Both the position numbers and the translations under genes were made by a program. The notes beneath the pieces were generated by a model, which did not search any database, was not told where the DNA came from, and saw only the letters and a list, made by a program, of their open reading frames with translations. DNA of 63,251 nt, filler included, from Globobulimina sp. (lineage: Eukaryota): the NCBI GenBank assembly GCA_003354225.1. It is 55 parts of 55 records of this genome, joined end to end, with 100 filler letters (N's around TTAATTAATTAA, not from the genome) between each part and the next. Parts side by side here need not be neighbours in the genome. Positions count along the whole stretch, not along the records: positions 11,531 to 12,583 come from PIVH01024774.1; positions 12,684 to 13,736 come from PIVH01024775.1; positions 13,837 to 14,889 come from PIVH01024776.1; 52 more parts are not named here. The stretch is one strand, 5' to 3'. Below, in pieces: positions 2,107-60,949 of the stretch. Position 1 is the stretch's first letter, and each line of letters starts with the position of its first letter.

Positions 2107-2307
2107 TGTTATTAAGTGTAAATAATATTAATCAGTTTCATTGCGTTCAGAAATAATAAATGATACTACATCATAAAACCGTGTAAATAGAAGAAAGCAA
2201 AGGGTCNNNNNNNNNNNNNNNNNNNNNNNNNNNNNNNNNNNNNNNNNNNNTTAATTAATTAANNNNNNNNNNNNNNNNNNNNNNNNNNNNNNNNNNNNNN
2301 NNNNNNC

Positions 2308-3359
2308 AAAAACGAAAGAATCGGACTTATAAAAACGGAGAAGCGGCGAGTAAAGAAACAAAAACACGAACGTAATTCATCCAAAGTACAGGAAATATTG
2401 AAACGAAAAGAATTGGAAAAGGAGCAATTATTGAAATTGAACGAAGAGCACAAATTGAAGGAATTAGAGCGTATTCAAGCGGCCAAAGAAAAATCGAAAA
2501 AAGTGAAGCGAAATTATCGAATACGTTCGCAGTCAAACTGTGAGTCTCCAGATCGTAATGTAAAACATAAAAAAAATCATCATCAGACGAATAAAGTATA
2601 CGTACGGATTGAAATATGTTCTGATAATCCATCATTGTCAATATCCACCACACCGTTGGCCGATGTTGAAGTTGAGTTTAATTTAACTCCCATTCCGTCG
2701 GATGATTCAGAGGCAGAGCATAGTGATTTAGGCGCCGTCGAGTCTGAGAATGAATTGTTGCCATTGACTGTGCCCACATTAACCATGCCTTTGAACTCTA
2801 TTTCACCCAAGAAACCGAGGAAAAAATCATTGGATATCCCTGCGTCCATATCCTCGCAAATAGGTCCTTTGAACGATGAGGATGAATGTTTGCAATTGAA
2901 CGATGCCACAGAATATTGGATCAGTTTTGTGTGTTTTTTTGTGTTTTGATATGTTTATATGTTTTGTTTAATAATTAGCAGAAACATATAATGAAATGAA
3001 TGCAATTGGACGACAAATCAAAGAGATTGATAACATCCCACACATAGATGCACAAAGACCACCGGTACCAATTGCTGTGAGTAACAGTGCAGATTTAGCA
3101 CAAAATCAAAATCAAAACAAAAACAATGAAGAGGAAGAGGAGGAATATTATTTCCCAATGTCTTGTGGGGGTTTAATGAGAGAGAGATCACAATCTTTGA
3201 GCACACCGTCTTTACTGAAACGGGCAGAATCTGCGCCAATTATTGTGAGTGATGACAAAGGAACCGATTATTGGATCAGTTATGTGTTTTATTTTTATTA
3301 TTTGAAATAATATTTGTGCATTTTTGTATTTCTCGCAGAACAATATAACAAATCAAATA
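2308..3359 (+). CDS. Low-complexity hypothetical protein, partial; introns 2924-2978 (or 2981) and 3279-3338
   Basis: Two T-rich GT...AG introns interrupt the same (E/D)YWI motif in phase 1; splicing restores one open frame. Confidence 0.65.
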
Positions 3360-3520
3360 NNNNNNNNNNNNNNNNNNNNNNNNNNNNNNNNNNNNNNNNN
3401 NNNTTAATTAATTAANNNNNNNNNNNNNNNNNNNNNNNNNNNNNNNNNNNNNNNNNNNNCAACAAGGGAACCAACTTAGTCTGGCTAGCCGTGCACAGAA
3501 TAGATGCATTGGTTCACTTT

Positions 3521-4056
3521 TTAACTAAGTTTCTTTGTATATTCATTATATTGATTTCTATCCATCAATGATTGCAATTCACTCTCCTCTTTCAATCTTA
3601 CTTTGATAATCCAACCATCCGCTTCTGGCGAACTGTTAACGAGTCCTGGCTCCTCATTTAATCTCTCATTTACCTTTCAAAAACAAAACAAAAAACAAAT
3701 ATTGGAATTATATTAAATGAATATAATTGATATTAAACTCCAGTGACTTCGCCAGCAATCGGCATATATAATTCTGAGGCTGCTTTAACAGATTCAATTT
3801 GTCCAAAAACATCACCTTTATTGAATTCATCCCCGATTTCTGGAAATTCAACAAATACAATTTCCCCAAGCGAATCTTGTGCATAATGCGTAATCCCAAC
3901 AATAGCTTCTTTTTCTGTTTGCAAAACCCATTCATGGTCATCTGAAAAACGACATTCACCAAAGTTTCGATGAACCATATATTGCATTGTCAATAATGAT
4001 GATCGCGTCAATGGGCGACTCACTCTTTGCAATGGTAACCGAAAAATGCTCTTCAT
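3521..4056 (-). CDS. GCSH: Glycine cleavage system H protein, mitochondrial precursor (156 aa); intron 3674-3738
   Basis: HEWV, VGITHYAQDSLGEIVFVEFP, lipoyl-lysine motif IESVKAASE; exon 2 VNERLNEEPGLVNSSPEADGWIIKV; Arg-rich N-terminal targeting-like leader. Confidence 0.95.
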
Positions 4057-11428: not shown

Positions 11429-11551
11429 CTNNNNNNNNNNNNNNNNNNNNNNNNNNNNNNNNNNNNNNNNNNNNTTAATTAATTAANNNNNNNNNNNNNN
11501 NNNNNNNNNNNNNNNNNNNNNNNNNNNNNNATGCCAGGCAGCCAAGCTTAA

Positions 11552-12195
11552 GGTGGTGGTGGTGATTTATTGGGTGATTTGTTTGGTGGACCCTCCATAC
11601 CACACCTTCCAATAACAGCATGGGTGGAAGTGCTGATATATTTGGCTCGTTTAATATCGTCCAATCCCTCATCGTCCAGTGGCAATTCTTTAATGGGTAT
11701 AAACCGCGGCTTTGCTGCTCCTAAACAACAGTTAGGAGCAAAGGTAATGGGCTTCCCACGATCACATGAAACGGACCAAATATTATTTGACAATGGATCA
11801 TTGCAAGTCAGTTATTTTAAGATCTATAAACAACAGAAGTCGACATTATGCGTATTTATATCCAATGTATCTGCTCAAAATGTGTCTGGTATTCAAATAT
11901 CGGTCAAAAAGGATGCCTCGAAATGTCAGTTACAATTTGGGTTTGATGTGGCGAACAGCAGTCCATCGCCAAAATTGAAGAATGCGACCACTACCATCAT
12001 CGCACAGATAGATGGCGGGAAGACCGCGTGTCAAATGATCACGTTTGGATTATTAATCAAATAGTAATACCAATGCAACGTTTGGTTAAACCAATCCGCC
12101 GCAAATAGTGATACCATGCAACATTATATTGTCCATTGGTAATGACATATTGCCACCAATAAATTTACAAATATCGGATTTAATGAGACCCGGCA
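11552..12195 (+). pseudogene. Adaptin large-subunit hinge/appendage fragment (AP-4 epsilon-like), frameshifted
   Basis: GDLLGDLFGG hinge motif, ILFDNGSLQVSYFKIY...CVFISN beta-sandwich-like segment, and downstream LQISDLMRP in a broken frame. Confidence 0.45.
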
Positions 12196-12209
12196 TACAA
12201 CAGTTCATT

Positions 12210-12273
12210 GTGATGATAGCTTAAGGAAAGCATATATTTAAAGAAGATTTGGGTTCCAATCCCAATCATCACA
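12210..12273 (+). ncRNA. 64-nt minimal tRNA-like element, copy 1
   Basis: Acceptor GTGATGA/TCATCAC, D-arm GCTT/AAGC, T-arm TTGGG-TTCCAAT-CCCAA, shrunken anticodon arm, followed by TTTT; 59/64 identical to 14153-14216. Confidence 0.7.
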
Positions 12274-12938
12274 TTTTATTATTTTTGTTATTTAATTTTT
12301 GTTTGTGTTTCTGTTGTATATGTTTGTATACTTTGTAATTTTATATAAAAAAAACACATCAGTAATTCCACAAATATCAAACAAAAATTTATAACATGGA
12401 GTTTATGATGCTGTATTATCATTATTATGGAACCACCCATGCTTTTTATGGGTGTTTATGAGTATAATAATTTTCTGCAAGAGGTAATTTTGAAATGAAT
12501 TTTTGAATGTATATATAGTGATAGATGTTCCAAAGGGACAAGAATCACTTTTTGGAACGCTTGCAGCTAAAGCCCTTCGGTAGNNNNNNNNNNNNNNNNN
12601 NNNNNNNNNNNNNNNNNNNNNNNNNNNTTAATTAATTAANNNNNNNNNNNNNNNNNNNNNNNNNNNNNNNNNNNNNNNNNNNNTCTTTCTTGTGTTTTTT
12701 TATAATGGTGGAACGGATTTTTCAGCCTTTTGGAGGCATATATGAAATAATAATTATTGCCTTTGAATAACTTCGTTTGATTCAATTATATTTAGATACA
12801 ATAATTTTATTATACTTTCACAGCCTCTGGAGCATGGGAACGAGTCTTTTCAGACTTGACATGACACTACTTAAAATTACATGAGCAAATCAATCAACAC
12901 ACGCGGGGACTCAAATTACCATTCAACAATTTATCAAA

Positions 12939-12986
12939 TCAACCAATCAACCAATCAACGATTCAACCAATTAACGATTTAACTAA
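12939..12986 (+). repeat. Six degenerate 8-mers (TCAACCAA/TCAACGAT) directly upstream of the GT4 start codon
   Basis: tcaaccaa tcaaccaa tcaacgat tcaaccaa ttaacgat ttaactaa. Confidence 0.8.
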
Positions 12987-12992
12987 TAAATA

Positions 12993-13736
12993 ATGGATAA
13001 GGTCCGGGTAGCATATATCATTGATGAACTGGGCACAGGCGGGACCGAGAGACAATTAAAAAACTTGATTGAGGGATTAGACCGGTCTCGGTTTTTAGTA
13101 TCAGTTGTTTTGCTGAGAGGTGTGAAAGATCATCCATTAAAACCTGAAAATGTTAACATTTGTTATCTAAATATCACAAAAATATTCAGTTTTTCGGGTA
13201 TCAGGAAGATATTTTTATTATCGAAATTTTTTAAACAAGAGCAGTGTCAAATTGTTCAGACATTTTTTCAGGATGCTACTATTGTTGGATTCGTTGCTGC
13301 TAAATGGGCGGGGACAAAAAAGATTGTTATTTCGGTAAGAGATATGCTGTTTTGGTCTAAGCCGATGGTTCTTTTGATACATCAAATCATAATGCGCTGG
13401 TCTGATGCAATACTGGTCAATTCTGAATCAGTGAAAAATAAAGTCAAGCAGGTGAGCAGGAATAAGCGAATTAAAATTATATATAACGGGATAATTACCG
13501 GAAAAGAATTTGAAAAAAGTATAAGTGCCAATCATTCTGTCAAAAAAGAATTTTCAATCGCTGATGAGTTGCCTGTTGTTGTTTTAGTATCAAATTGTAA
13601 TCGACAGGTAAAACGGGTTGATTTACTTGTTGAAAGTATACCTCTTGTCGTTAAGGAAATCCCGGCATATTTTCTAATAGTTGGAGATGGCTGGATGAGG
13701 CCACAACTGGAAAAGAGCGCTGCCGAGTTAAAGATA
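12993..13736 (+). CDS. Bacterial GT4 (GT-B) glycosyltransferase, LPS/EPS biosynthesis type, 3' truncated
   Basis: IIDELGTGGTERQL, LDRSRF, ILVNSESV, IIYNGI, KRVDLL, IVGDG; intronless. Confidence 0.9.
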
Positions 13737-14152
13737 NNNNNNNNNNNNNNNNNNNNNNNNNNNNNNNNNNNNNNNNNNNNTTAATTAATTAANNNNNNNN
13801 NNNNNNNNNNNNNNNNNNNNNNNNNNNNNNNNNNNNACTCGTTTCTATACATTTGACTACTTAGTTAGTTACTTGAGTTGTTTATATTCGACTATGTTTG
13901 ACTGTATGAAAGTAGATGCTAGAGTTTCCGCGCACCCTCTTACCAGGGTGAGGTTGACGCAGAGGAATTCGAACAGCAATCACGGCGCCATTAATATTCT
14001 GAGTGTGGCTGACGACGATATAAAGGCGAATGACGTGGCGAGCAATCCGCTTTATTTCTGGCATCAATTGGAAGATTGGAGAGTGTCCACCCACCAATGT
14101 AATGACAATGGAGTGTGATCTAATTTGTTGTGATGAATGTGATGAATTTAAT

Positions 14153-14216
14153 GTGATGATAGCTTAACAAAAGCATCTAATTAAAGAAGATTTGGGTTCA
14201 AATCCCAATCATCACA
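14153..14216 (+). ncRNA. 64-nt minimal tRNA-like element, copy 2
   Basis: Same cloverleaf as copy 1; perfect B-box GGTTCAAATCC; followed by T6; preceded by two extra TGTGATGA units. Confidence 0.7.
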
Positions 14217-14453
14217 TTTTTTGTTTGTATTTATGTTTCTAATAAATTTGTTAGAATTTATTCGGTGTTTCCCCAAAATAGAAGATTAGAATTGATTCAA
14301 GCAAGAATATTTTTATACTTTTGACTTTTTAGGTTCACACTTCTAAACACTTTTTGGATTGACTTAACGATAAGTTGTATACATTTAATTCAATTATCTG
14401 AGAAACGCTTTGCAAATCCAGAAACAGTTTGCTATATGTTTGTCTTGGGTTTG

Positions 14454-14568
14454 TTCTGTGTTTGTTATAACTTTGTCTTGGGTTTGCAAATCCAGAACAA
14501 AGTTAGAACAAATTTATAATTGAATTTTCGGTATACAAAGGGGGGGGGGTTATCTTTTGGAATATATC
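14454..14568 (+). repeat. Dispersed repeat family B, copy 1
   Basis: Near-identical reverse complement of 57214-57351; diverged copies at 18235-18329 and 30378-30422 (core GGATTTGCAAACCCAAGAC). Confidence 0.9.
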
Positions 14569-14989
14569 TTTTAGTTTTTAAAGTTTTTTTGCAGGGCCCT
14601 AAATGTAGTCTAATGTAGGTGCAAAAAGCTTTAAAAAACTTAGTCAATCACAAAACACAGTTGCCAATCAGTTAGAACTCGGAACTTCAGAAAACTAGTA
14701 ATTTATTTCAACAATGCTGTCGTCTTTTTAGGGCTTAATTTTTGCTGTAAAGCTGGGATATGCATTACCATCACCAGTACTATCATCTGTATCAATCCTA
14801 CCATCGTTCGACCAAGAAACGAATTCCTACTATTTACATCACCAATGTCCATGAACTAATTATCTTCGTTCATCTGTGGCAGGATTGATNNNNNNNNNNN
14901 NNNNNNNNNNNNNNNNNNNNNNNNNNNNNNNNNTTAATTAATTAANNNNNNNNNNNNNNNNNNNNNNNNNNNNNNNNNNNNNNNNNNNN

Positions 14990-18186: not shown

Positions 18187-18234
18187 TTTAATTTTAAAAT
18201 TGTAATTTGTGCGATCGTTGATCAATTAAACGAC

Positions 18235-18329
18235 ATATTCCATTGGATAACCCCCACCTTGTATACATTTGGTTCAATTATAAATTTGTTCGGATTTGCA
18301 AACCCAAGACGTACAAAGTTATAACAAAT
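18235..18329 (-). repeat. Dispersed repeat family B, diverged copy
   Basis: GATAACCCCC...TTCAATTATAAATTTGTTC...GGATTTGCAAACCCAAGAC...AAAGTTATAACAAA. Confidence 0.8.
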
Positions 18330-42680: not shown

Positions 42681-43684
42681 TTATTATTATTATTATTATT
42701 ATTATTTATTCACGCAAATAATACAATTTACGTACTTTCATAAGGAATAGGTACTTGTTAGTTCAATAGATATCAATCACAGCATAAAAAGTTAGTAACA
42801 TCACAAAGTTGAAATATAACTCAAAATATCTTTAATTTGAATGCTATCAAGGCCACAGTCGGCCTGACCATCAAGGCACATATTAAGTTCCATAATCTGT
42901 GCCACAATCCGCATGGTGGCATCATCAGGAGGCACAGGATGATCCATATTCTCCAAAAAGGCAATATTTGAGTATAATACTGAATGGGTGTTACCCTGTG
43001 AAAGCTCATGAAGAGACTTAACCACTGGGTTGTCTGACCCCATCAGTGTATTATTGAATTTCTGGAATCTTTTTATTACTTGAGTTTTCAAATTATCATT
43101 TCCTGCCAGGAGTGGTAGTAGGATGGAATGGGACACATTTGGTAGTCTCCATACCTTACGCTGAACCACATTCCAGGCAGTTCTGATTTTATCACTGGCA
43201 CGATCAGCTAACTTCCATGATTGAGAACCATGCACAGAGGTGCAATATGTCTGTATTAATCTAGATTTCACATTTGCAGGTGCGACTGAGAAAGCACTTA
43301 AAACATAATTTGCAGTACGAACGAAGTGGGCTCTCTTATGTTCAATGTCACAGTGATCAGATAGGTTAGGAGTAATTAGGGTACCCAAGTACTTAAACTT
43401 TTCGACCCACTCTACATCCCTGCCAGTAACTGTAATCACAGGAAGTTGGGCAGTAACAGTTATTCTTGGAGTAAAAGCCATTACTTTAGTTTTACTTGAA
43501 TTAAATTTTACCTTGTATTCAACACCATAGTTTTCCATAGTATTAATCATTCGTTTCAACCCATCAATTGTGGGGGCTAACAGCGTTAAGTCGTCTGCAT
43601 ATGCAAATGCGCCATAAAAGTTATTATTGATGTGGCAACCTGCGCCAGCATTCTCTAATCTAGACAAAAGTTCGTCCAGATATA
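42681..43684 (-). mobile_element. Non-LTR retrotransposon 3' end: RT (42801-43684), short 3' UTR, AATAAA and (TAA)8 tail; RTEX/CR1-group-like
   Basis: GAFAYADDLTLLAPT, KFNSSKTKVM, VEKFKYLG; microsatellite tail at 42681-42704. Confidence 0.9.
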
Positions 43685-50444: not shown

Positions 50445-51168
50445 ATTCTAAAATATTGATTTTTCGTACTTCGTCTGTCCTTAGTTGATTTTTGATGTTC
50501 AGTGTCTGAATGTATTACTATTGAAAAATACGAAAAATGATGCGACCTCGTGTCCGATGTAACTTTTGAGACAAAAATATTTCTAAAACANNNNNNNNNN
50601 NNNNNNNNNNNNNNNNNNNNNNNNNNNNNNNNNNTTAATTAATTAANNNNNNNNNNNNNNNNNNNNNNNNNNNNNNNNNNNNNNNNNNNNTGAAGTTAAA
50701 GAAAAGGTGTATTGTCATTTGACATGGCAATAGGTTTTAGTATAAAACATGAATTATGGTACCGATATGTGTACAAACAGCATTTTTCTTCTTTGCATTA
50801 GTATGTCATTTTGTGGCTCGTACTAGTTAATTAAATTGTAAAATTTGATAAAAATATCAACCGAGGTCAGAGGTACAATAATAGTATTGCAACAAAGAGG
50901 CAACAGCTTCCTCAGGGCACTGAATCACAACAGAAAGGCAGTTGACGAAAGATTTATTCAGGCGATGACTCTTAACTCACACTTCAGAAAAGCAACTTAA
51001 AGAACAGCCCATCAATAAGTAAATAACCACTTTCATAGAAAGATTGTGATATGTTTTACTGACAACACCAAATTTAAAAGTTTAATCTGTTAAGGTTTTG
51101 CAACTTTTTTTATAGTATTGGTGGCCCTGAAGAGGGCCGTTTGGGTTTGTTTTTCTTGGTTTGGTCGA

Positions 51169-56805: not shown

Positions 56806-57213
56806 ATTAATTTCGGTTGATTTAAGTGTAATGAGTTTTTGAATGCAAATGTTATTCGCCTAAAACGTTGTTGTCCACAGTATTCGTTTAAAATAGTGAT
56901 GCCTTTTTGTAATGTGTTGTGTTGTTGAGGACACATAGGATGTATTGTATATCGTTTATACCTCGTACAAGCTAAAGGATGCGCGAAACCGAAACGATGA
57001 AAATTGACTAGAGGAGTTAGTTAACACTTTTTTTTTTTGTTATCACGGAAACGATTAAGATGGATTTCCTTCGTTTCTCAGAAACAATAAAAATCTGACG
57101 CTGAAAACCAGATGCTCTTAAAAATCGTTTCTCTGAACGCTATTAGAGTTTTCCTATTTAACCATGATCAACTTTTTTTAATCATTTGTGATTTGTTAGA
57201 GAAAAGGCTTAAC

Positions 57214-57351
57214 GATATATTCCAAAAGATAACCCCCCGTTTGGATAACCACCCCTTGACACCCCTTTGTATACCGAAAATTCAATTATAAATTTGTTCT
57301 GACTTTGTTCTGGATTTGCAAACCCAAGACAAAGTTATAAAAAACACAGAA
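57214..57351 (-). repeat. Dispersed repeat family B copy, with an insertion in the C-run
   Basis: Reverse complement of 14454-14568 plus about 23 extra nt. Confidence 0.9.
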
Positions 57352-57488
57352 CTAAAATAGTAACTCAATAGTTGCTAAATCGTTGCTGAATAGCCTAGGT
57401 TTCTAAATAGTTACTAAATAGTTATCCATTATCGTTTTTGTTTTGAAATAATTACTAAATAGTTTCTAAATAGTAACTAATTAGTTGC
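57352..57488. repeat. Degenerate 11-nt tandem repeat (CTAAATAGTTA)
   Basis: About ten variant units directly adjoining the family B copy. Confidence 0.75.
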
Positions 57489-59898: not shown

Positions 59899-60949
59899 GA
59901 CAGCGCGTTTGGAGCACATCGATTTCTGTATGACGGACACGTGCAAAATCAACAGGGGATTGAGAATTTAGTGATGGAGCATAAACCTGACGGTATTTGA
60001 CTATTTTTTTGCATTTTCTATAACAAAATAAAACGTATGCAGATGCAGATAAACAAATTAATTTCTCGCATTCGTATGCAACACAGCCTGATAATTCTGT
60101 GCGATCTGCAGAAACCTATACGATGATAAATATATATTTGCGTTGGACGATGAAGGTATATTGTTTCGTTTTTCTTACATTGCAATTGTAACAATTAAAA
60201 AGTTGTAATTTATTATAAAAATGGTACTGATACGGCCGGAATCACATTTCGTAGCAACGCAGATGTTCAAGAAAATGGTACACTTTCTTTAGAAGGCACC
60301 ACATCTTCACAAAGAGTTCAATTTACATATCAATCGTTGGTCATTTGTGGTATACAATTAAGTTCGGAATAAAATAAAGATGGATGCATGCAATATCCGC
60401 GTAGCTCAATTGGCAGAGCTTTGGTTGCGTTGAACTAAATATACAGGTTCGACTCCTGTCGTGGTACATCAATCAATTCAGTCATCCAACACACAGACGG
60501 AGACAGCGTACGTTGTATTTCTGTGAATCCGACTGTTTCACCAACAAATACGGTAACTATGTCTGCCATGCATATGCCTGATGGACGCAGAGAACAACAA
60601 CTGTTCAAGGCGATGGATCCATAAATAATGGCTGGATTACAGACCAATATTATTTGTACATTGCTATTTCTGGCGGAGTTTTGTGCTGTTGTTTGATTGG
60701 TGTGTAATAATAATGTTTTTTGTTTGTTGCGTTGTATACATTACACACAAATCAGTTTTATTGTTTGCGAGAAGAAGCAAAAAAGAGAAGAAATATATGG
60801 GGCCGACGTCGACAGATCTCGTTGAAATTACGTCAGTGTCCGAATTGAGGGCAGATAAAAGTAATGAGAACTCACCAAACAATGTTATAGAAGATATGAT
60901 GAAAATTATTGAAATTGAGAATAAAAAAGACAATGTACAGAAAGATGAT
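59899..60949 (+). pseudogene. Frameshifted type I membrane protein remnant with introns, interrupted by a tRNA-like element
   Basis: Fragments SVNPTVSPTNT, YLYIAISGGVLCCCLIGV-stop and KKYMGPTSTDLVEIT lie in different frames; GT-AG intron-like segments near 59993 and 60156. Confidence 0.45.
60395..60467 (+). tRNA. tRNA-like gene or pseudogene with an 8-nt anticodon loop (TGCGTTGA; Asn-GTT-like) and a frayed acceptor stem
   Basis: TAGCTCAATTGGCAGAGC D-arm (A box), TTGGT/ACTAA anticodon stem, ACAGG-TTCGACT-CCTGT T-arm (B box); only 5/7 acceptor pairs. Confidence 0.7.

Follow-up and report, generated by a model that had tools for sequence, protein, structure and literature searches.

Rodent ID elements are an example of the 'simple' tRNA-derived short interspersed elements (SINEs), and tRNA-like small RNAs of another kind, mascRNA and menRNA, are cut from MALAT1 and NEAT1_2; the latter are single-copy and lie at the 3' ends of conserved RNA polymerase II (Pol II) long non-coding RNAs, with a triple-helix element upstream. 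In Entamoeba, units of normal, different tRNAs are themselves tandemly arrayed. Definitions of SINEs are given by SINEBase (PMC3531059), and PMC3079666 mentions the arrays of Entamoeba, in which short tandem repeats separate the tRNA genes. Among the papers listed in literature searches, with the supplements of PMC6783311 outside their scope, none gave an account of foraminiferal SINEs or tRNA-like repeats. The DNA analysed here (the window) comprises 63,251 nucleotides of the Globobulimina sp. assembly GCA_003354225.1, in which a 64-nt tRNA-like cloverleaf occurs twice on the plus strand, as W1 (12210..12273) and W2 (14153..14216). These two sequences are members of a family that is dispersed and numbers, by order of magnitude, a thousand copies, and that consists of tRNA-derived mini-genes of RNA polymerase III (Pol III) type, which have probably spread as a selfish, SINE-like repeat; they are most likely selfish or leftover small-RNA genes and not signals that end mRNAs.

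The window is not one molecule. It consists of 55 contigs of 1,051-1,053 bp each, chained with N/TTAATTAATTAA spacers and with an overall GC content of ~30-35%, and the contigs bearing W1 (11531-12583) and W2 (13837-14889) are unlinked, as an earlier reading of this DNA made from the sequence alone (the sequence-only reading) had assumed. In W1 the acceptor stem lies at 12210-16/12266-72, the D arm at 12219-31, the anticodon-like arm at 12232-48 (17 nt) and the T arm at 12249-65, followed by a discriminator A at 12273. Both copies share the 7-bp acceptor stem GTGATGA/TCATCAC, with an inverted match that extends over 9 nt in W1 and over 11 nt in W2, a D arm of the form GCTT-5 nt-AAGC, and a T arm of the form TTGGG-TTC(C/A)AAT-CCCAA ahead of the discriminator A. 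The sequence-only reading was accurate in describing a perfect 7-bp acceptor with a terminal match of 9-11 nt, a 4-bp D-stem, a 5-bp T-arm and no variable loop, and also in placing four of the five differences between the copies in loops; the fifth lies in the anticodon-like stem, where an A.G mismatch in W1 is a C-G pair in W2, and every pair of the W2 stem (ATCT/AGAT) is formed. Its distance of 16 nt between the D and T arms has to be corrected to 17 nt (12232-12248), which is exactly a 5+7+5 anticodon-type arm lacking nucleotide 26 and a variable loop. W1 folds with a minimum free energy of -16.5 kcal/mol (z = -3.0 against shuffled sequences) and W2 with one of -17.3 kcal/mol (z = -4.4), and a 27-nt pattern spanning the T arm and the 3' acceptor strand occurs twice in the window compared to 0.00 expected. 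The Rfam tRNA alignment uses another register, made up of A26, a stub of 3 bp and a variable loop of 4 nt, which pairs 84.4% of cells across 15 copies versus 93.3%, plus a fifth pair, for the 5-bp/7-nt register.

Neither copy was found in the window by ARAGORN in its standard mode or by Rfam in gathering mode with its default filters. With lax filters, the Rfam tRNA model (RF00005, gathering score 29) gave W1 46.0 bits and W2 48.2 bits, and the six copies tested in this way scored 41.6-51.4 bits, all above the gathering score. The metazoan-mitochondrial mode of ARAGORN called both copies tRNA-Leu(UAA) without a variable loop; as this mode is noisy, with 16 calls in the window compared to 7-12 in shuffled sequences, the mitochondrial tRNA-Leu call alone means little. 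Among these calls in the window, a canonical T arm is present only in the cloverleaf family and in one degenerate tRNA. By reading, an A-box-like sequence, TAGCT(T/C)AA(T/G)G., can be compared with the consensus TRGCNNAGTGG, and a B-box-like sequence, GGTTCAAATCC, with the consensus GGTTCRANYCC; the spacing of the two is ~24 nt, shorter than that of tRNAs. Judged by its sequence, the cloverleaf family is related to tRNAs.

The exact T arm/3' acceptor pattern was found at four loci of the named metagenome set PJEL01... and at two loci of records PIVX01... and PIVJ01..., which are titled as metagenome-assembled genomes (MAGs), whereas a scan of viral contigs for the pattern gave 0 matches. These six copies were thus ascertained by pattern, and a covariance model of the family (R1), built from the first eight copies, was used to search the window, the fetched loci and the two MAG records. 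R1 scored W1 at 90.1 bits and W2 at 93.8 bits and found no other copy in the window, where the next best match had 11 bits. The two MAG records gave 8 + 2 strong matches (53-95 bits), of which two (L005 and L006) had already been found by the pattern and eight were new; the remaining 9 of 19 matches, at no more than 29 bits, lie on GC-richer sequence. With duplicates counted once, 16 distinct copies with unrelated flanks are known, including W1 and W2. The presence of 8 and 2 copies of a eukaryotic repeat, on short contigs, in the records that hold L005 and L006 (G001 and G002) indicates that these bacterial bins are contaminated by host contigs.

The abundance of the family was gauged by aligning Logan contigs of four sequencing runs (X1-X4) to the W1 contig. 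For the 246 contigs from X1, a DNA-like run, the summed depth is 7,918 on one half of the element and 24,951 on the other, compared to ~11 on the unique upstream part, a fragment of an adaptin gene (described below); summed contig depth is not a copy number, and the values, ~2,000-fold over the adjacent single-copy sequence, are read only as an order of a thousand. The depth falls to 2,261-3,579 over the next 70 nt and to ~130 over the stretch after 12358. X2, a run from another study and another organism, also contains the element. In X2-X4 depth is high over the adaptin part and low over the element, and by this contrast these three runs look RNA-like. Thus the high-copy family that had been surmised from two hits in the window is real, and the high copy number and dispersal expected of a tRNA-derived SINE were both found.

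A structure-based alignment of 15 copies shows that 95.9% of pair cells are paired and that the acceptor and T stems are almost invariant; its covariation score was reached by 0 of 500 shuffles. The D-stem pair 13:19 is C-G in eight copies and U-A in seven, a clean compensatory change that defines two subfamilies. The fifth pair of the anticodon-like stem is U-A in nine copies and A-U in one, and is left unpaired (A.A) in five. Differences from the consensus favour loops (42 of 286 positions) over stems (28 of 546), with p = 5e-6 for copies that are related and not independent, and the direction of the bias is unchanged when only model-found copies or only columns outside the pattern are considered. 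The comparison of substitutions with stems that had been proposed as a check thus came out in favour of a conserved fold, with one covarying stem pair. Changes seen in a single copy, in contrast, are not biased toward loops (seven stem sites, three loop sites). Such a pattern would arise from a few stem-constrained source genes, whose copies then decayed at random.

These features bear on whether the copies are functional small-RNA genes, either minimalist tRNAs of Leu-UAA or Ser-UGA type, possibly serving mitochondria, or non-decoding RNAs resembling mascRNA. Members of the GCTC subfamily have an anticodon-like arm composed of a perfect 5-bp stem and a 7-nt loop with U33 and A37, the fifth pair has been restored in two different ways, and the terminators described below are kept. 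According to a study of foraminiferal mitochondrial genomes, these contain truncated rRNAs and no tRNA genes (PMC10127745). However, nucleotide 26 and the variable loop are missing from all copies, the T-loop TTC is lost in 6 of 15 and the D-loop GG is absent from 11 of 15, so that the features of canonical decoder tRNAs (nucleotide 26, a variable region of 4-5 nt or a long one, GG and TTC) are not those of this family. One acceptor stem is combined with several "anticodon" triplets (TAA in eight copies, TGA in three, CGA in one and TAT in one), which differ by single transitions; in addition, L004 has TGA and a 4-nt insertion in the anticodon-like loop, and L019 has a deletion in that loop. 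A G discriminator is confined to a pair of closely related copies. In the window no further minimal tRNA-like genes are conspicuous, the mitochondrial mode giving 16 calls against 7-12 in shuffled sequences, and ordinary tRNA genes are reported in Foraminifera (PMC3079666). Because nucleotide 26 and the variable loop are lacking, the copies are, by their sequences, unlikely to decode, and it is unlikely overall that the family consists of functional small-RNA genes. A related proposal is that only the source genes make a processed 64-nt minimalist nuclear tRNA, with a UAA or UGA loop, a 5-bp stem and zero-length connectors, possibly imported into mitochondria, the dispersed thousand being retro-copies of it; this must be considered very improbable.

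The mitochondrial call of ARAGORN, mtRNA-Leu(UAA), together with the AT-richness and short D loop of the copies, might also suggest that a mitochondrial tRNA-Leu gene gave rise to them as nuclear copies (NUMTs). Such an origin is unlikely because the foraminiferal mitochondrial genomes covered by the same study are without tRNA genes (PMC10127745). Furthermore, homology between copies stops at the borders of the cloverleaf, the T arm is of the canonical cytosolic/bacterial type, and copies number about a thousand, making a NUMT origin exceedingly improbable.

The immediate flanks of the cloverleaf are consistent with a Pol III-type unit that consists of a short A/T-rich leader, the 64-nt cloverleaf with its A- and B-box-like sequences, and an oligo-T directly behind. 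The T-run that had been noticed after the cloverleaf is TTTT in W1 (12274..12277, + strand), resembling a Pol III terminator, and TTTTTT in W2 (14217..14222, + strand). For a distance of up to 12 nt from the discriminator, 13 of 16 copies have TTTT, where the background is 0.096; for up to 5 nt, 10 of 16 copies have it, where the background is 0.026. Run lengths are T4-T9, and the run is kept in copies with differing flanks. Leaders are A/T-rich and often start with CAT(A/C) 11-24 nt upstream, with a recurring TCTAATTTATT motif. The W1 leader (12192..12209, + strand; ..CATACAACAGTTCATT), which begins where adaptin homology ends, resembles the leaders of L004 and L008 as well as the 3' half of a 40-bp hairpin unit upstream of other copies. 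The W2 leader (14119..14152, + strand) has a TCTAATTT motif that is also present in L007, L010 and L021; behind it, the 5' end of the element is partially duplicated twice (GTGATGAAT). Most copies have in common only the cloverleaf and a few flanking bases.

It may be proposed from these sequence features that source copies are transcribed by Pol III, with the internal boxes as promoter and the T-run as terminator, that the RNA, through its intact acceptor/T-arm half, would be accepted by RNase P, RNase Z and the CCA-adding enzyme, and that the family would have spread by retroposition as a selfish SINE-like repeat, its copies then decaying at random. Of the two possibilities raised by the sequence-only reading, a compact Pol III non-coding RNA or SINE and an RNase P-type signal for 3' processing, the former stands in the form of a putative tRNA-derived, Pol III-type, high-copy element, and the latter is not supported.

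Upstream of W1 is a broken AP-4 epsilon adaptin fragment (11552..12191, + strand), recognized by protein homology. An open reading frame (ORF) at 11552-12064 corresponds to the C-terminal appendage region of AP-4 epsilon adaptin, homologues of which carry PF14807 and PF01602. The stretch 11552-12051 aligns to residues 489-655 of protein P0002 and 12090-12191 to residues 656-688, and the fragment stops 109 residues short of the end of P0002, which runs on to residue 797. The frame is shifted by a 37-nt insert (12052..12088, + strand) with a direct repeat ACGTTTGG on both sides and ends that can be read as AT..TA or TT..AA; it is absent from homologous contigs, in which 12051 is joined to 12089 (one contig of X1, and X3 and X4), and it may be an indel of a pseudogene copy or else something less ordinary. 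Spliceosomal introns were rejected as an explanation, since GT..AG ends are missing both from this insert and from the break at 12190; introns of Globobulimina are reported to be canonical (PMC6783311). Homologous contigs of X2, X3 and X4, which are ~4% different from the window, lack the 37 nt and encode the expected next adaptin residues after 12190 and not the element. W1 starts ~18 nt past the breakpoint. Because the adaptin fragment is frameshifted and cut, and the homologous contigs are without the element, W1 does not stand at the end of a gene: its location is a dead gene copy and no 3' untranslated region (UTR), and its site is 'filled', the copy having been inserted in or joined to the dead gene.

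A second proposal is that the cloverleaf is an RNase P-dependent signal of MALAT1/mascRNA type that forms the 3' end of the upstream transcript. At the three loci with an identifiable gene fragment, the cloverleaf is downstream of it on the same strand: W1, L004 (a RabGAP-TBC fragment, profile positions 95-196 of 216) and L007 (a kinase fragment, profile positions 89-220 of 263). In one subfamily, moreover, a GC hairpin 11-24 nt upstream of the cloverleaf could protect a new 3' end. Nevertheless, all three fragments stop inside a domain or protein and not at its end, and the ORF upstream of W2 has no Pfam family and no homologue, so that the earlier statement that both copies lie just downstream of coding-like sequence is not supported. 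In the 60 nt upstream of W1 and W2, reading revealed neither a hairpin nor an A-rich tract with U-rich motifs. About a thousand copies with Pol III-type terminators also fit poorly with such a signal, and, with homologous adaptin contigs lacking the element, it is highly doubtful that the cloverleaf ends upstream transcripts.

The interpretation of the family as a SINE-like repeat has weak points of its own, in the T-run within the unit, in target-site duplications and a LINE-type (long interspersed element) tail, and in the subfamily with arrays, and the following observations weigh against it. W1 is followed by a T/G-rich tail (12274..12359, + strand) that ends in ATATAAAAAAAACA, is common to L007 and is repeated in X1; W1 and L007 are 83.6% identical over 171 nt including the cloverleaf, and their common tail of 86 nt ends in ATATAAAAAAAA(A)ACA, with an A-run of A8-10. 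The T-run is inside this common unit and Pol III would stop before the common tail, which therefore makes a poor fit to a classical SINE. Among the W1 matches there is no similarity of the tail to the contig of the window that encodes a reverse transcriptase (RVT_1). As for target-site duplications, the flanks of each of 10 copies share a longest word of 7.5 nt on average compared to 6.9 (sd 1.2) for mismatched flanks, and the longest shared word is at least 9 nt in 2 of 10 copies versus 7.8% of controls; thus the two flanks of a copy show no clear excess of similarity over mismatched ones, although L004 has a 9-nt direct repeat AAGTCGTTT around its leader, cloverleaf and 79-nt tail. At the W1 site the insertion exceeds 390 nt, and adaptin sequence never resumes on the contig. 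The stem sequences are almost invariant, and the support for structure is mostly conservation, which recent amplification alone could give. Finally, five copies of the C-G subfamily (L009, L011, L015, L017 and L019) lie behind tandem arrays of a ~40-bp GC-hairpin unit, and L009, L011, L015 and L017 also have a 5' region in common upstream; here a repeat of at least 1 kb encloses the cloverleaf, which is not at its head.

In element-strand coordinates, the arrays upstream of the cloverleaf are L009:744-1185, L011:128-586, L015:265-752, L017:291-578 and L019 ~320-500. Each unit consists of a GC hairpin (GGCGGCGAAGCCGCC or GGCGACGCAGTCGCC) and an A/T-rich stretch, its 3' half is leader-like, unit lengths vary, and all three forward frames of the arrays are open. 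A GC hairpin stands 11-24 nt upstream of the cloverleaf. In L017 an ORF reads through the element, and a search with it gave no match. A Helitron 3' hairpin was considered and rejected, there being no CTRR end, and a sequence complementary to the 3' end plus CCA, as at a primer-binding site, has no true match in the 90 kb examined.

The weak points of the SINE-like interpretation led to a separate proposal, that the cloverleaf rides as a module in larger repeats (minisatellite units or another transposon) and is spread by DNA-level duplication or foreign machinery, its own Pol III transcription being irrelevant. The position of the cloverleaf after 300-450 bp of ~40-bp hairpin repeats, the common 5' region upstream in L009, L011, L015 and L017, the common tail sequence in L009, L011 and L017, the 86 nt that W1 and L007 have in common beyond the terminator, and the failure to find clear target-site duplications among 10 copies all favour this proposal. 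On the other hand, most copies share little beyond the cloverleaf, the common 5' region also occurs alone in L027 without an array or cloverleaf, the T-run is kept where flanks differ, and the W1 tail, when searched in the two MAG records, had only L007 as a true match, plus a poly-T artefact. Carriage within larger repeats is accordingly judged rather unlikely, and dispersal of a tRNA-derived, Pol III-type mini-gene is preferred.

The ends of the element also seed microsatellite-like slippage. In L004, (ATCAC)n and (CCAA)n follow the cloverleaf, and the (ATCAC)n at L004:600-540 (- strand) runs on from the 3' acceptor strand; at the other end of the element, GTGATGAAT is duplicated ahead of the 5' end of W2 (14128-14145).

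Eukaryotic and bacterial pieces are mixed within the window. Those of eukaryotic kind include a serine carboxypeptidase of eukaryotic type and a histone 3' UTR stem-loop (51099-51143, - strand; Rfam RF00032, 40.5 bits, above gathering), the contig of which is probably foraminiferal. The contig between W1 and W2 encodes a glycosyltransferase family-4 ORF (12990-13736, + strand; Pfam PF13439, PF13579) that is bacterial-looking, and the assembly therefore mixes host and bacterial contigs. A reverse-transcriptase ORF (42804-43682, - strand; Pfam RVT_1, 34.4 bits) is a possible source of retroposition activity. A degenerate tRNA-like sequence of ordinary length (60395-60467, + strand) has an Rfam tRNA score of 36 bits; ARAGORN gave no sensible anticodon for it, and its acceptor stem is poorly paired by eye. 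The contigs of both copies also hold repeats other than the cloverleaf. On the W1 contig, 12431-12583 is a second repeat, unrelated to the cloverleaf, with an X1 summed depth of ~2,500-3,200 compared to ~11 for unique sequence; on the W2 contig, 14450-14574 is common to ~57208-57355 and ~18224-18328 in two other contigs of the window (81% over 148 nt and 73% over 120 nt). The PJEL01, PIVX01 and PIVJ01 records are part of a metagenome project on the foraminifer Globobulimina, as described in PMC6783311. Because the named records that bear copies come from this project, the host of the family, an AT-rich protist nuclear genome, is probably that of a foraminifer close to Globobulimina.

Genomes of Foraminifera are large, repeat-rich and almost unannotated, and an abundant tRNA-derived family with a covariance model offers a way to mask and date their repeats. 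Standard tRNA finders and the default filters of Rfam miss the cloverleaf, which is therefore left unannotated or mis-called a mitochondrial tRNA. The family can serve as a marker of host contigs that contaminate bacterial bins, as in the two public MAG records with 8 and 2 copies, and it is a candidate for a Pol III transcription unit from a lineage not known to have a characterised one. If the RNA is made and processed, a cloverleaf without connectors would offer an unusual, natural way to test the requirements of RNase P, RNase Z and the CCA enzyme.

Compared with known systems, the cloverleaf resembles the reduced tRNAs of metazoan mitochondria, as modelled by ARAGORN/ARWEN, in its length of 64-66 nt, short D loop and AT-richness, but it differs from them in its nuclear context, canonical T arm and zero-length connectors on both sides of the anticodon arm, and in the presumed host lineage, for which mitochondrial tRNA genes are absent from the genomes reported (PMC10127745). 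The subfamily with arrays recalls the tRNA gene arrays of Entamoeba in linking tRNA-type genes to short tandem repeats, although here a single aberrant tRNA-like sequence is dispersed, and whole units in tandem were not seen on the short contigs. With mascRNA and menRNA the family shares a cloverleaf of ~60 nt in which the acceptor, D and T arms are intact and the anticodon region is non-standard, and recognition by RNase P, RNase Z and the CCA-adding enzyme would be expected by analogy; it departs from them in having about a thousand copies with Pol III-type terminators, in the position of W1 within a broken gene, and in having no triple-helix-type element upstream of W1 or W2. Unlike SINEs, it keeps a whole cloverleaf with a perfect 7-bp acceptor stem, has an oligo-T inside the common unit, and in one subfamily is preceded by hairpin minisatellite arrays. 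Like tRNA-derived SINEs, however, it has a tRNA region with A- and B-box-like sequences, a high copy number, dispersal among unrelated flanks and diagnostic subfamilies, and W1 and L007 have, as SINEs do, a short body ending in an A-run.

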